DNA from: Ferruginibacter sp.
GTDB lineage: Bacteria > Bacteroidota > Bacteroidia > Chitinophagales > Chitinophagaceae
NCBI GenBank assembly: GCA_025350645.1
Contig: JANXXM010000036.1
Span: forward strand, 14,699 to 78,698
Length of the DNA stretch: 64,000 bases
Direction: 5' to 3'
The translations under genes were made by a program, and so were the position numbers. How positions within the stretch are numbered: position 1 is the first letter of the stretch; each line of letters begins with the position of its first letter. The notes under the pieces are model-generated. The model did not search any database, was not told where the DNA came from, and saw nothing but the letters and a program-made list of their open reading frames with translations. Below, piece by piece: positions 44,639 through 50,220 of this stretch.

Positions 44639-45328
44639 ATGAACGAGAAATTAAAAGATGCATTGATAAGAAACCGGCCAACGTTTCATAAAGTAGTAAC
44701 ATTTGATGACAAAAGAGATTCATTACTGCCCTTTAATTTTACAGAAAGTAATGTAGAAATTACAGCTGCACTCGTTGCTGATACCAATCATTTTTCTGCA
44801 TGGGTAAATAAAAAATTAATTGATGCAGGGGCTACTTATGGTATAGGTGGCTACAACGAAAACCGCACTTTATACAAACGCAGTACATTATTTTCCGGCA
44901 TAGAAGAAAGAAGCCTGCATTTAGGTACAGATATATGGGCGCCTGCAGCAACAGCAGTATTTGCGCCACTTGGCGGTATGGTGCATAGCTTTGCCTACAA
45001 TAATAATTTTGGAGATTATGGTGCAACAATCATTTTGCAGCACCAGTTAGATACTGTTGCTTTTTATACTTTGTACGGGCATCTTTCTCTTGCAGATTTG
45101 GTAGATATGCGCAAAGGAAAATTTCTTACAAGAGGAGAAGTTATTGGACATTTAGGCAAGCCAGAAGAAAATGGTAACTGGCCGCCGCACCTGCATTTTC
45201 AGATAATAGAAGATATTAGTTTTAATGAGGGCAATTACCCGGGCGTATGCAGCCTGCAGGATGCAGAAAAATATCTGTATAATTCGCCAGACCCAGATTT
45301 TATATTAAAGATGAATTCTTTTATTTAA
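44639..45328 (+). CDS. M23 family metallopeptidase
   Basis: LHLGTDIW (HxGxD), DYG.TIILQH, YTLYGHL, PPHLHFQ (HxH). Confidence 0.88.
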   Translation: MNEKLKDALIRNRPTFHKVVTFDDKRDSLLPFNFTESNVEITAALVADTNHFSAWVNKKLIDAGATYGIGGYNENRTLYKRSTLFSGIEERSLHLGTDIWAPAATAVFAPLGGMVHSFAYNNNFGDYGATIILQHQLDTVAFYTLYGHLSLADLVDMRKGKFLTRGEVIGHLGKPEENGNWPPHLHFQIIEDISFNEGNYPGVCSLQDAEKYLYNSPDPDFILKMNSFI

Positions 45329-45606
45329 TGCATTGCGCCCATTCTAAAATTTGAAGTGCAGGTGGCAAAACCAATAAGCATTAATAAACCGCCACTTATA
45401 AAAAAGCCCTGCGCATATCTTTTATCTTTTGCAAACAATAAAATAAGGCCAACAAATAACTGCAGCAGGCCGCCAAAAAAACCTACACTTCCTATAAATA
45501 CAAAAAAATCTTCGCTGCTATGCCCACCATTTGCAACAGCGAGTAATGCGCCAAATAAAAAAACAACAGCAAAACTGTATAATATTATTTTGGGTATTAA
45601 TTTCAT
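45325..45606 (-). CDS. Small 3-TM membrane protein with a single C-terminal Cys (paralog B)
   Basis: 93 aa; ...GLILLFAKDKRYAQGFFISGGLLMLIGFATCTSNFRMGAMH; clear paralog of 45645-45920. Confidence 0.8.
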   Translation of the reverse strand: MKLIPKIILYSFAVVFLFGALLAVANGGHSSEDFFVFIGSVGFFGGLLQLFVGLILLFAKDKRYAQGFFISGGLLMLIGFATCTSNFRMGAMH

Positions 45607-45644: not shown

Positions 45645-45920
45645 TTATATTTTAGTTGCGCTGCATACGGCAAAACCCAGCATTATCATTGTGCCTGCGC
45701 TTAATAAAAAACCCTGGGCATAACGTTTATCTTCTTTAAATAATAAAAATAATCCGATTATTAAATCTACTACTCCGCCAAAAATATTTACTAAGCCAAA
45801 TGCAATTGAAAGATTTTGATACGAAAATGATGAAGATCCGCTTATCGTAGATGAAACCATTAAACTAAAAAAAAGTGCAATTCCAATATTTATCAGTAAA
45901 ATTTTTACAGGTAGTTTCAT
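45645..45920 (-). CDS. Small 3-TM membrane protein with a single C-terminal Cys (paralog A)
   Basis: 91 aa; ...GLFLLFKEDKRYAQGFLLSAGTMIMLGFAVCSATKI. Confidence 0.8.
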   Translation of the reverse strand: MKLPVKILLINIGIALFFSLMVSSTISGSSSFSYQNLSIAFGLVNIFGGVVDLIIGLFLLFKEDKRYAQGFLLSAGTMIMLGFAVCSATKI

Positions 45921-46012: not shown

Positions 46013-47419
46013 TTAAACTGGCACATGGCTTCTTTCTGCCTGCAGTACTTTTAAGTATTCTTCTTTATCATCCCTGTAAAATAAATTCATGGTTTCAAAA
46101 GGAATAATGCGCCCGTCCTTATGCACGATATGCACACAGCTTTTTTTAATAGACCTTACATCAAAATCGTACGCATCTATAAACCGCATAATAATAATGC
46201 GAAAAAGATTATCGTAACCCAGACCTGGCGCTTCAATTTGTGGTAAACAGCAAAGGAGTTGTTTCATATTTTCCTCTACCCTGTCTACCGAAATTCCTGT
46301 ACTAAAAATATCAATCATCTGTTCCTTTAACGCATCGTCCTGCTCGTACACAATGGTATTTTTGCTATTGTCTAAAAGCTGTACAGGATCTACATATCTC
46401 GTAAGCGGAAAAACTTTACCATTTACTTTTAATGCGTAACCCATTGCCAGCGCATCTGGGTTGCAGGGCACAGGAATAATATCATTTGGTTCAAAAATAT
46501 TGGTTTGCTCTAATATTTTTCTGCGTACATCGGTAAGCGTAATACGGTCCGTTGCGGGGTTAAAATTATCTGTACGTCCTGCTACCTGCGTGGGTTGAAA
46601 AGTAACCCCTCTTACACATTTTTGCTGTAAAGCAAATTCAATTATTTTTCCTATCTCCTCATCGTTTACTCCCTGCTGCAAGGTTACTACTAAAGTTGTG
46701 GCCAGGTTTAACGCATTCAAATGTTCCAGTGCTTTCATTCTTGTTGCCGTAAGATCTTTGCCCCGCAAGGCTTCTAGCGCATCGGGTTTAAATGAATCGA
46801 ACTGTAAATAAATTTCAAAATCGGGGGCATAAGTGGCAAGTTGCTTTGTAAATTCGAAGTCTTTAGCAATTCGTATTCCGTTTGTATTAAGCATTAAATG
46901 CTTTATCGGTTTTTTCTTTGCTATATCCATTATGGCAAAAAAATCCGGATGCACTGTTGGTTCGCCGCCGCTTATTTGCACCACATCTGGCGTGCCTTCA
47001 TTTGCCACAATAATATCCAGCATTTTTTCTACTTCTTCAACCGTTCTGTGCCTGCCGTAATGCGGGCTGCTCATGGCATAGCAGGTAGGGCATTGAAGAT
47101 TGCAGCGGTCTGTAATTTCTATAACAGTAAGGCAACTGTGCTGCTCATGATCTGCACATAAACCACAATCGTACGGGCAGCCATAATGTGTTTTTGTATT
47201 AAAATGCAATGGCGTTTCTGATGGCTTATTGTAATTGCGAATATTTTTATAATACTCAATATCTGTTGCTATTAACACTTTTTCAAACCCATGCTGCACG
47301 CAATTCTTAAGCATGTACACGTTGGCATTTTCAAAAACAATTTTAGCATCTACCCTGCGAAGGCAGGTGCTGCAAATACTAAGTGTGAAGTCGTAATAAG
47401 TGTATGGGCGTTCGGGCAT
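46013..47419 (-). CDS. Radical SAM enzyme of the Tes/GDGT-MAS (MJ0619, COG1964)-like family
   Basis: N-terminal CSTC...CVQH metal site, GCPYDCGLC..H...C auxiliary motif, CNLQCPTC radical SAM motif, SGGEPT, NTNG, YLQFD, C-terminal SCVH...GRIIPF. Confidence 0.85.
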   Translation of the reverse strand: MPERPYTYYDFTLSICSTCLRRVDAKIVFENANVYMLKNCVQHGFEKVLIATDIEYYKNIRNYNKPSETPLHFNTKTHYGCPYDCGLCADHEQHSCLTVIEITDRCNLQCPTCYAMSSPHYGRHRTVEEVEKMLDIIVANEGTPDVVQISGGEPTVHPDFFAIMDIAKKKPIKHLMLNTNGIRIAKDFEFTKQLATYAPDFEIYLQFDSFKPDALEALRGKDLTATRMKALEHLNALNLATTLVVTLQQGVNDEEIGKIIEFALQQKCVRGVTFQPTQVAGRTDNFNPATDRITLTDVRRKILEQTNIFEPNDIIPVPCNPDALAMGYALKVNGKVFPLTRYVDPVQLLDNSKNTIVYEQDDALKEQMIDIFSTGISVDRVEENMKQLLCCLPQIEAPGLGYDNLFRIIIMRFIDAYDFDVRSIKKSCVHIVHKDGRIIPFETMNLFYRDDKEEYLKVLQAERSHVPV

Positions 47420-47449
47420 GGTATTCGTTTTTATATTTGGATTTAGTTC

Positions 47450-47649
47450 TTATTCAAAATCTAATTTTGATAAACCAGACTGTCTACCTATCGAATTAAA
47501 AGTTGCTGTAGGCATTTCTTTCTCCCAGCAGGAATTATAACAGTCTATACCGGATTGCCCATTTTTCTTTATTAAACATGACTTCCATCTTGAGCCACAA
47601 AATATTTATCTTCTTTCTAAACGATATGTTGAGGTGTACTATTTTGCAT
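47450..47649 (-). pseudogene. Collapsed hicB-hicA toxin-antitoxin remnant
   Basis: MQNSTPQHIV*KEDKYFVAQ (HicB-like start, TAG where Trp is expected) fused in frame to DGSHV**...TVIIPAGR/KEMPTATFNSIGRQSGLSKLDFE* (HicA-like GSH motif and C-terminus, one frameshift). Confidence 0.65.
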
Positions 47650-47653
47650 AAAA

Positions 47654-48406
47654 TTATTTTCTCAAATATAATTTTTTTTTGCTAAAGTAAAGTGCTGCAT
47701 AATATCCAACCCCTGCTAAACAAGTAACCTGAATAGTAGATAATCCAACCTGCCAGGTATAATGCGGTTTTATAAAATCAATCAAAAAACGAAAACTGAT
47801 ATAAGCCATCATAAATATTTTGAATCGCATACCAGGTGGCAATATCCTGTGCTTTTCCACCTGCACAATACTTATCCAAAGCAATATCAAAAAAAGAATT
47901 TCGTACAGCGTTACGGGGTGCCGCAGGGTACCATCTCCCAAATTCATTCCTGTAAAAAACCCAGTAACAATACCGTAAGTTTCTTCATACACACCCATGC
48001 TAAAACAGCCTACTCTTCCTATTATTAACCCAAGTATCATAGGGTAAGTAAATAAATCGCCGCTGCTATTTTTTTCTTTAATAATTTTTTTGATCAGTTC
48101 TACGCCACACAATCCACCTAAAAAACCGCCAAGCACCGTTTTATTTTGATAGAAATACAATAATTTATTTGGTGCGGAAACCATCTCCGGAAAATTTTCT
48201 AATCCACCGATAAGCCTGCTTCCTATTATGGCACCAAATATGGCACCGATAATAATCCATGTTCTGTTTTCAGACTCAATAAGATCTTGTTGTTTTTTTC
48301 TTAAGAAAATAAAATAACGGAAAGCCACAAAAAAAGCAAGAAACTCAAAAATGCTATGCAGTGTAAAGTAATATTGGCCTGCAGATATAGTAATAGGAAA
48401 TGGCAT
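47654..48406 (-). CDS. Divergent prolipoprotein diacylglyceryl transferase (Lgt) family protein
   Basis: 7-TM; KTVLGGFLGG, IGRVGCF...YG, RHPVTLYE, YISFRFLIDFIK; ATG at 48406 (MPFPITI) preferred. Confidence 0.85.
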   Translation of the reverse strand: MPFPITISAGQYYFTLHSIFEFLAFFVAFRYFIFLRKKQQDLIESENRTWIIIGAIFGAIIGSRLIGGLENFPEMVSAPNKLLYFYQNKTVLGGFLGGLCGVELIKKIIKEKNSSGDLFTYPMILGLIIGRVGCFSMGVYEETYGIVTGFFTGMNLGDGTLRHPVTLYEILFLILLWISIVQVEKHRILPPGMRFKIFMMAYISFRFLIDFIKPHYTWQVGLSTIQVTCLAGVGYYAALYFSKKKLYLRK

Positions 48407-48421: not shown

Positions 48422-48601
48422 ATTGTTATAAAAGGATGGCAAAGAATTTGCAGATAATTTTGCTTCTAACCAATATCCCTGAAATACCAAAACAGCACAC
48501 AAAAAATATTATTCTACGATCCATAATTGATATAACCACATTATGGTATTGCTACCTATTTAATCTATACCTACTTTTAACTTTCTTAAAAACTACCGCA
48601 C

Positions 48602-49182: not shown

Positions 49183-50220
49183 ATGAAAAAAGCATTGGTA
49201 ATAAGCGGCGGTGGCTCTAAAGGTGCATTTGCAGTAGGTGTAATAAAACAACTGGTGCAAAACTTTCCTATTGATTTTGATATGGTGGTGGGTACCAGCA
49301 CAGGCTCGTTAATAGCTCCACTGGCAGCACTCGGCAAAATTGATGATCTGCAAAAATTATATACTACCATTACCAACGATGATATAATTATTAAAGACAA
49401 CATTGGTAACCGGCTGGATGAAAATTCAATATTTGACGCCTCTCCTTTATTTGAAAAAATTTCGCAGATTTATACTGATGCTTTTTTTGATGAACTAAAT
49501 ACATCGGGCAAAGAAATTTATTTGAATACCGTGTGTTTGCAAACAGAAGAACTGGTGGTATTTACCAATGCGGTAAATCCTGTGCAATCAAAATTTTACA
49601 CTACTACAAAACTTACAAATGGCGATCATTTTAGAAAAGCTATACTCGCCTCTGCCTGCCAGCCTATTTTTATGAACCCGGTAAAAGTAAACCTGCATGT
49701 AGCTGGCGAAGCAAGACCAAATGATCAGTTTGTAGATGGTGGTGTAAGGGAGTATGCTGGCGTACAAGTAGCCATAGATGCAGATGCAAAGGAAATTTTT
49801 ACGATATTACTCTCTGCTAAAAATGGGGAGGTAAATAATACAGATTATACTACCATGTTCCCTATACTGGAGCAGACCATTGCCATTTTTACGACAGATG
49901 TTGGTAAGAACGATCTTATCATCCCTTTTCAATACAATGATGCATTAAAATATATAGATGCCGTAAAAAAGAAAATGAAAAGAGAAGGTCTTGCTATGGA
50001 TGATATCAACAGATATTTTACCATACAAGGCAAGGAAAGTCCGTTTGAAGATAAAGTACCTTTAAAAATTCATATTATACAGCCGGAAACAGCATTGGGC
50101 GGCGGTACTGGCGGGTTGGAATTTATACCTGCAGATATGAAAAAAATGCTGGCAAAAGGTGTGGCTGCTGCGGGGGATTTTGTGGCGTCATTAAAACCCG
50201 GGGAGGTAGACTGGGCCTAG
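49183..50220 (+). CDS. Patatin-like phospholipase
   Basis: GGGSKG oxyanion loop, GTSTG nucleophile, DGG catalytic Asp. Confidence 0.92.
   Translation: MKKALVISGGGSKGAFAVGVIKQLVQNFPIDFDMVVGTSTGSLIAPLAALGKIDDLQKLYTTITNDDIIIKDNIGNRLDENSIFDASPLFEKISQIYTDAFFDELNTSGKEIYLNTVCLQTEELVVFTNAVNPVQSKFYTTTKLTNGDHFRKAILASACQPIFMNPVKVNLHVAGEARPNDQFVDGGVREYAGVQVAIDADAKEIFTILLSAKNGEVNNTDYTTMFPILEQTIAIFTTDVGKNDLIIPFQYNDALKYIDAVKKKMKREGLAMDDINRYFTIQGKESPFEDKVPLKIHIIQPETALGGGTGGLEFIPADMKKMLAKGVAAAGDFVASLKPGEVDWA

Follow-up and report, generated by a model that had tools for sequence, protein, structure and literature searches.

An Lgt-like membrane protein encoded beside a Tes-like radical SAM enzyme in Ferruginibacter sp.

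The locus

The window analyzed here is a stretch of 64,000 nucleotides from Ferruginibacter sp. (contig JANXXM010000036.1), and on its minus strand it carries four genes which we treat together as a cassette:

47654..48406 (-), an Lgt-like protein of 250 aa, a predicted membrane transferase with seven TM helices and a reduced periplasmic head
46013..47419 (-), a Tes/TrsS-like radical SAM enzyme of 468 aa, with an N-terminal Zn-ribbon of the HMPTM type, a Cys-rich cluster motif and a CxxxCxxC radical SAM core
45645..45920 (-), small membrane protein A, 91 aa, with three predicted TM helices and a single Cys at the outer end of the last helix (...MLGFAVC-SATKI), a candidate substrate
45325..45606 (-), small membrane protein B, 93 aa, a paralogue of A (shared KDKRYAQGF loop), with a single Cys at the end of the last helix (...LIGFATC-TSNFRMGAMH)

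The Lgt-like open reading frame is real. It starts at an ATG (MPFPIT...); a longer reading from a TTG at 48502, 32 codons upstream, is not supported, because homologues begin at M-x-F-P. A preliminary description, made from the sequence alone, had proposed that this is an Lgt paralog lacking the catalytic histidine of the HGG motif, and each of the strings on which it relied is present: NKTVLGGFLGG, GRVGCFSMGVYEETYG, RHPVTLYE and YISFRFLIDFIKP. The observation was correct, in that the protein reads KTVLGG where E. coli Lgt has SFHGG and GRVGCF where E. coli has GRLGNF.

Family membership and predicted fold

The protein matches the Pfam family of Lgt (PF01790) nearly end to end, with 67.4 bits against a gathering score of 24.9 and coverage of profile positions 2-236 of 240, whereas the NCBIfam equivalog model for housekeeping Lgt (EC 2.5.1.145; TIGR00544) is missed by a wide margin, at 43.2 bits against a cut-off of 118.9. 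NCBIfam has no dedicated model for this Lgt-like family. An AlphaFold2 model built on 97 family sequences is very confident (pLDDT 96, pTM 0.91) and shows an N-terminal hairpin, seven TM helices, arm-2 and only a small beta element in place of the periplasmic head, the stretch between TM4 and TM5 being about 29 residues against about 43 in E. coli Lgt. A Foldseek search at E<=0.001 found only E. coli Lgt (PDB 5AZB, E 8.7e-8), and a structural search against representatives (VIA) gave 5AZC at Z 13.0 with an rmsd of 4.7 over 233 aligned residues, the next, unrelated chain reaching Z 7.7. The predicted active-site level is near the outer leaflet, as in Lgt.

Residue correspondences were taken from a MAFFT alignment of E. 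coli Lgt with 108 family representatives at 50% identity or less and, independently, from a family profile aligned to 5AZB; a smaller alignment agreed with both. E. coli residues are given first, then those of the query, then those of the 108 representatives:

Y26: His17; His in 105/108, the other three being gapped
H103: Leu92; V 91, L 8, I 4, A 3, M 1, and never H, Y, W or F
G142, R143, G145: Gly130, Arg131, Gly133; kept, R143 in 108/108
N146: Cys134; Cys in 108/108
Y235: Tyr202; kept
R239: Arg206; kept in 107/108
E243: Asp210; Asp or Glu
R246: Lys213; Lys

The RHP-x-QLYE motif is also kept. Family-wide invariant positions are H17, G93, R131, G133, C134, G145, Y202 and R206, and the RHP-x-x-LYE and GDG motifs are near-invariant. 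The replacements are therefore traits of a clade and reflect neither chance nor sequencing error. Two of them, the invariant His at the Y26 position and the Lys at R246, had not been seen in the preliminary description.

The missing histidine as evidence

The absence of a histidine at position 103 is weak evidence by itself. In E. coli, Y26, H103 and N146 are each essential; the substitutions H103A/N/Q/R/Y are all inactive, and the HGGL motif has been proposed as part of the site that binds the lipobox peptide (Mao et al., PMC4728403). However, a 2026 study (PMC13251419) calls H103 “essential but poorly conserved,” being replaced by Y in Firmicutes, W in Actinobacteria and sometimes by F, and finds N146 replaced by C in distant Lgts. 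A profile search with PF01790 found exactly two loci in the genome that provided the window. The second, on another contig, is a 441-aa long form and the presumed housekeeping Lgt; it reads LTFYGG and GRIGCQ (GRIGCQVAGDGDWG), with Phe at position 26 and Asn at 235, and it too falls short of the equivalog cut-off (88.8 bits), because of a large insertion. A search for a canonical HGG-bearing lgt, which had been put forward beforehand as a test, thus came back negative in this genome, although other Bacteroidota families do have textbook HGG/GNFINGE Lgts. Only the aliphatic residue at 103 and the His at 26 set the paralog apart, Cys at 146 being shared with the long Lgt, and the comparison with E. 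coli alone would have been misleading.

Neither alignment places a His at the 103 position. The invariant His17, however, lies at the position of Y26, which in the E. coli structure contacts the sn-2 ester of PG, the same ester as is contacted by the arm-2 residue M100 (PMC4728403), and a relocated His cannot be excluded. Of the published Lgt homologues we found, only the second homologue of Mycobacterium smegmatis, MSMEG_5408, is described with the same pair of replacements, Y26H and N146C; it is said to have presumed low Lgt activity beside a major Lgt (PMC13251419).

A clade distinct from housekeeping Lgt

In a quick maximum-likelihood tree, ten canonical Lgts (that of E. coli, the 441-aa Lgt of this genome and eight from other Bacteroidota) were separated from 36 members of the family by a branch with SH-aLRT 98; the 36 included the query, a Thalassarchaeaceae-named protein, an Opitutaceae-type protein and a fusion protein. 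The diagnostic residues of the query (His at 26, aliphatic at 103, Cys at 146, Lys at 246) are the same in the Thalassarchaeaceae-named, Opitutaceae and fused members. In a sample of 201 Bacteroidota genomes, the 441-aa type was found in 12/12 genomes of the family to which Ferruginibacter belongs, as expected of a core gene, whereas the paralog was found in 5/12, was missing from one genome of the same genus, and occurred in 20/201 overall.

Coupling to a Tes-like radical SAM enzyme

Directly downstream of the Lgt-like gene, on the same strand and 234 bp away, lies the radical SAM gene. Its product scores 96.5 bits for the Pfam Radical_SAM family and 61 bits for Zn_ribbon_HMPTM, and shares the Zn-ribbon plus radical SAM architecture with the tetraether lipid synthase Tes (GDGT-MAS; MJ0619; NCBIfam NF045702) and with TrsS (NF045646); it scores below the cut-off for both, with 281 bits against 450 for Tes and 328 against 490 for TrsS. 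Archaeal Tes works without an Lgt-like partner.

Linkage was examined from both sides. Among 80 Bacteroidota loci retrieved with an alignment of the radical SAM enzyme alone, an Lgt-like gene lies upstream in all 77 that have enough upstream sequence, mostly 2-30 bp away or overlapping. Among 80 metagenome loci retrieved with a single archaeal-type Lgt-like protein, 66 of the 67 with more than about 900 bp downstream carry the radical SAM gene. Over the 201 genomes, 20 have the paralog and 20 have the radical SAM enzyme, with 19 having both, one only the paralog (G035 in our numbering of the sample) and one only the radical SAM enzyme; kinship inflates any statistic here, but gains and losses clearly go together. 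In two genomes (G040 and G094) the two enzyme genes are on different contigs. The radical SAM enzyme is much better conserved (60-84% identity) than the Lgt-like protein (33-65%).

The two are also found as natural fusions of 700-825 aa. Of 62 long homologues of the Lgt-like domain, 54 protein clusters are single polypeptides with PF01790, the zinc ribbon and the radical SAM domain (PF01790+PF23545+PF04055); they are 38-100% identical to each other, and their source names include Verrucomicrobiota and Tepidisphaerales. The radical SAM enzyme is attached through a Pro/Ala-rich linker to the C-terminal end of the Lgt-like domain, which should be cytoplasmic by analogy with Lgt. An AlphaFold2 model of one natural fusion protein has pLDDT 80.8 and pTM 0.71 with a disordered linker (248-262), and establishes no docking geometry.

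Small membrane proteins with a cysteine at the end of the last helix

In both small proteins of the window, a basic loop is followed by a last hydrophobic helix that ends in the only Cys. Open reading frames of this kind are present in 72/77 Bacteroidota loci, with the motif [L/I]-[I/L/V]-[G/S]-[F/L/G]-[G/S/A]-[I/V/T/A]-C-[G/S] and a median of 7 residues after the Cys. With a lenient, frame-based filter and matched control zones on the same strand, the cassette zone was positive in 60/61 Bacteroidota loci against 7/61 and 7/61 in the controls, and in 15/17 loci from other phyla against 2/17 and 2/17; a few loci (L109, L128, L153, L163 and L169 in our numbering of the retrieved loci) show no such reading frame by our filter. 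In Chryseobacterium and Sphingobacterium the small genes lie between the two enzyme genes and not after them, so the trio survives rearrangement. In marine loci matching Thalassarchaeaceae-named proteins the partner is larger (150-370 aa, with an EF-hand-like N-terminal part) but ends in the same way (...LLFGFCMLMMGSGGKL). A search for fusions of the Lgt-like protein to the small Cys proteins found none: the C-terminal extensions of five family members are unrelated, and a sixth is a read-through into the radical SAM gene.

A probable dedicated membrane enzyme

The preliminary description had concluded, from the altered motifs, that the protein has altered chemistry or specificity, such as a dedicated substrate, and is not the housekeeping Lgt. 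This interpretation is partly supported: the conclusion of a dedicated enzyme is well supported, but by evidence that was not then at hand (the second Lgt in the genome, the accessory phyletic pattern, the near-obligate linkage and frequent fusion to a Tes-like enzyme, and the cassette-encoded Cys-tailed proteins), and the reasoning from E. coli residues is weak.

We consider that the gene encodes the membrane subunit of a conserved two-enzyme module and is not the general Lgt of the cell, and put the probability of this reading, including the mechanism below, at roughly 0.55. What our analysis shows directly is that the protein has the predicted Lgt fold and keeps the equivalents of the phospholipid-binding and gating arginines (R143 and R239), Y235 and the GR-x-G core of the signature motif; that it belongs to a separate clade with its own invariant residues; that it is inherited, placed and often covalently fused with a Tes-like radical SAM enzyme; and that small membrane proteins ending in a hydrophobic helix plus one Cys come with the pair. 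Each further step, including donor, acceptor and catalysis itself, is inferred from sequence and models, without biochemical data for any member. That the protein is a dedicated enzyme working with the radical SAM partner seems to us very likely, while the specific acceptor is about as likely as not.

In this view, which is the most economical one, the Lgt-like protein would, like Lgt, take the diacylglyceryl group from a membrane glycerophospholipid at the level of the outer leaflet and transfer it as a thioether to the conserved Cys of the small proteins of the cassette. By the positive-inside rule, this Cys is placed at the outer end of the last TM helix, which is the geometry of a lipobox Cys at the end of a signal peptide and the level of the Lgt active site; the likely acceptor Cys is, however, at the C-terminal end of a protein, where that of Lgt follows an N-terminal signal peptide. 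The retained arginines, Tyr and GR-x-G core argue that a glycerophospholipid is still bound and processed, and the invariant His17 and Cys134 argue for a selected but altered active site, but with Y26, H103 and N146 all replaced Lgt-type transfer may not be retained. The changed HGG site may reflect the non-canonical motif [G/S]-[F/L/G]-[G/S/A]-[I/V/T/A]-C, with its bulky residue at -1; the bottom of the central cavity in E. coli Lgt is hydrophobic (PMC4728403). The radical SAM enzyme, tethered at the cytoplasmic C-terminus of the Lgt-like protein, would then act on the acyl-tail ends that reach the bilayer midplane, as Tes does with phytanyl tails, and this could be a C-C coupling that yields a protein-anchored, tail-modified or membrane-spanning lipid. 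Since the radical SAM enzyme is cytoplasmic and the Cys is predicted on the outer side, the two enzymes cannot both touch the Cys, and the order of events is a guess.

The boldest form of this reading, which we regard as unlikely although it is not excluded, is a prokaryotic system for C-terminal cysteine lipidation, in which the Tes-like enzyme welds the acyl-tail ends to other tails and so ties a protein covalently to a membrane-spanning lipid, the system being spread across Bacteroidota, Verrucomicrobiota, Planctomycetota and marine group II archaea. By analogy only, a thioether lipid on a Cys a few residues from the C-terminus recalls CaaX-type lipidation in eukaryotes, but the enzymes are unrelated, the lipid donor differs, and no ICMT gene lies in the cassette of the window.

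Alternative explanations

The main rival, possible but less likely, is a lipid-only pathway, in which the Lgt-like protein binds a glycerophospholipid, or moves its diacylglyceryl group to a non-protein acceptor, and presents the tails to the Tes-like enzyme; this enzyme would make membrane-spanning or macrocyclic lipids, for example by tail-to-tail coupling of iso-C15 chains as proposed for bacterial Tes homologues, and the small proteins would be regulators or assembly factors. Consistent with this are the tight coupling and fusion to a lipid-tail enzyme, the retained PG-binding arginines, the loci without an obvious Cys-tailed reading frame, and the proposal that bacterial Tes homologues make brGDGT-type lipids, in which context it was noted that iso-branched acyl ends resemble phytanyl ends (Zeng et al., 2022; PMC8941075). 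However, the one feature conserved in the otherwise very divergent small proteins is a single Cys at the predicted outer end of the last helix, specifically enriched at the cassette; archaeal Tes needs no Lgt-like partner; and Bacteroidota are not known to make diabolic-acid or brGDGT lipids.

It is unlikely that the small proteins are precursors in a RiPP-like lipopeptide pathway, in which after Cys lipidation the helix would be cut off and a short lipidated C-terminal peptide (Cys plus about 3-18 residues) released or displayed. The helix before the Cys does look like an internal signal peptide, with a basic loop, a hydrophobic stretch and a small-residue motif, the tails after the Cys are short and variable, and there are tandem paralogous copies, as with RiPP precursors. 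No protease or exporter is conserved in the cassette, however, the -1 residue is mostly I/V/T, unlike signal peptidase II sites, and the Cys-tailed protein of the marine archaeal-type loci is 150-370 aa with its EF-hand-like part. Somewhat less likely still is a catalytically inactive scaffold that only anchors the radical SAM enzyme to the membrane and guides lipid tails to it: the replacement of three residues essential in E. coli and the C-terminal fusion would suit this, but polar cavity residues (His17, Arg131, Cys134, Tyr202, Arg206) and the RHP-x-x-LYE and GDG motifs are invariant or nearly so across about 30% sequence identity, a pattern that points to a selected active site. A redundant or back-up Lgt acting on ordinary lipoproteins is very improbable, for although the Pfam membership and fold are shared and about 1,300 genomes are reported to carry two lgt copies (PMC13251419), the paralog forms a separate, patchily distributed clade, is almost never without the radical SAM enzyme, and has an altered peptide-site motif in all members.

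Distribution and annotation

The family is large, with 2,048 representatives at E<=1e-3 in a library clustered at 50% identity and 5,852 hits at E<=1e-20 for an Opitutaceae-type query. The cassette is found in Bacteroidota, in Opitutaceae and in contigs matching proteins named Ca. Thalassarchaeaceae, and the family occurs in Bacteroidota, Verrucomicrobiota, Planctomycetota and, by NCBI naming, marine group II archaea. The archaeal assignment rests on NCBI names only, since the genes flanking one such locus (L165), encoding IcmF, an acyl-CoA ligase, an RhtB-type exporter and YbaK, are not diagnostic. The literature states that Lgt is absent from archaea and that MG-II lack Tes homologues. Our searches for Lgt together with Tes or a radical SAM enzyme found no paper linking the two or describing this family, within a literature set that leaves out most subscription journals.

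Lgt is regarded as a single-purpose, universally conserved enzyme and as an antibiotic target; a sister family of thousands of members, with its own invariant residues and an obligatory radical SAM partner, would show that the Lgt fold has been reused for a second, unknown membrane chemistry. The family also offers a concrete handle on what the many bacterial Tes homologues do, these being discussed at present only as candidate brGDGT synthases (PMC8941075): homologues that come with an Lgt-like gene and Cys-tailed proteins may have nothing to do with tetraether lipids, which matters for reading lipid palaeo-proxies from gene surveys.

Databases name the Lgt-like proteins “prolipoprotein diacylglyceryl transferase,” which should not be done by default, and the fusions “7,8-dihydro-6-hydroxymethylpterin dimethyltransferase.” The other genes next to the cassette in the window, encoding a patatin, a 178-aa protein and an M23 protein, are not conserved with it, apart from M23 in one genome of the same genus.

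Gene order within and around the cassette

Two features lie in the region separating the Lgt-like gene from the radical SAM gene and in the sequence upstream of the Lgt-like gene:
47420-47653, minus strand: gap between the Lgt-like and radical SAM genes
49183-50220, plus strand: gene for a patatin-like phospholipase

The gap is 234 bp here, against 2-30 bp in most relatives, and it holds short broken reading frames resembling HicB (..KEDKYFVAQDGSH..) and the C-terminal end of HicA (..PTATFNSIGRQSGLSKLDFE). This has the appearance of a decayed toxin-antitoxin remnant inserted into the cassette, a reading that the preliminary description had also given. The patatin-like phospholipase lies about 800 bp upstream of the Lgt-like gene and is transcribed away from it; the protein gave only weak matches to anti-phage and CBASS phospholipase models (49 and 45 bits, far below cut-offs), and the gene is not conserved next to the cassette in other genomes. 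In loci from Lewinella and Hymenobacter (L091, L112, L115, and L116), one to three extra genes lie between the Lgt-like and radical SAM genes; these include a 283-351 aa protein with an N-terminal signal peptide (MAKSW.LFLSLL...), and may be lineage-specific additions to the cassette.

Diversity of Lgt and Lgt-like proteins

Two further observations concern sequences outside the window:
Contig C87 of the same genome, locus L001, 1162-2487, plus strand: the only other Lgt gene of the genome
Locus L165, 7001-9809, on a metagenome contig of 322,520 bp, and loci L135-L149: Lgt-like gene, Tes-like radical SAM gene and gene for a Cys-tailed EF-hand membrane protein, sitting together

The only other Lgt of the genome is a 441-aa long form with an insertion of roughly 70-100 aa in the head region, and it has Phe26, Tyr103, Cys146, and Asn235 in E. 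coli numbering. This type is found in all 12 sampled genomes of the family, whereas other Bacteroidota families have textbook HGG/GNFINGE Lgts.

The Lgt-like protein from the metagenome loci is 100% identical to proteins that NCBI names Ca. Thalassarchaeaceae (marine group II archaea). The flanking genes did not settle the origin of the contig. Published papers state that Lgt is absent from archaea, and that MG-II lack Tes homologs.

Among the fused forms, a divergent subgroup (proteins P0463, P0466, P0467, and P0468), about 35% identical to the others, reads GRL[AG]CF..GC--CYG in the signature motif, with extra cysteines, and keeps Arg at the R246 position, suggesting a second subtype of the module.
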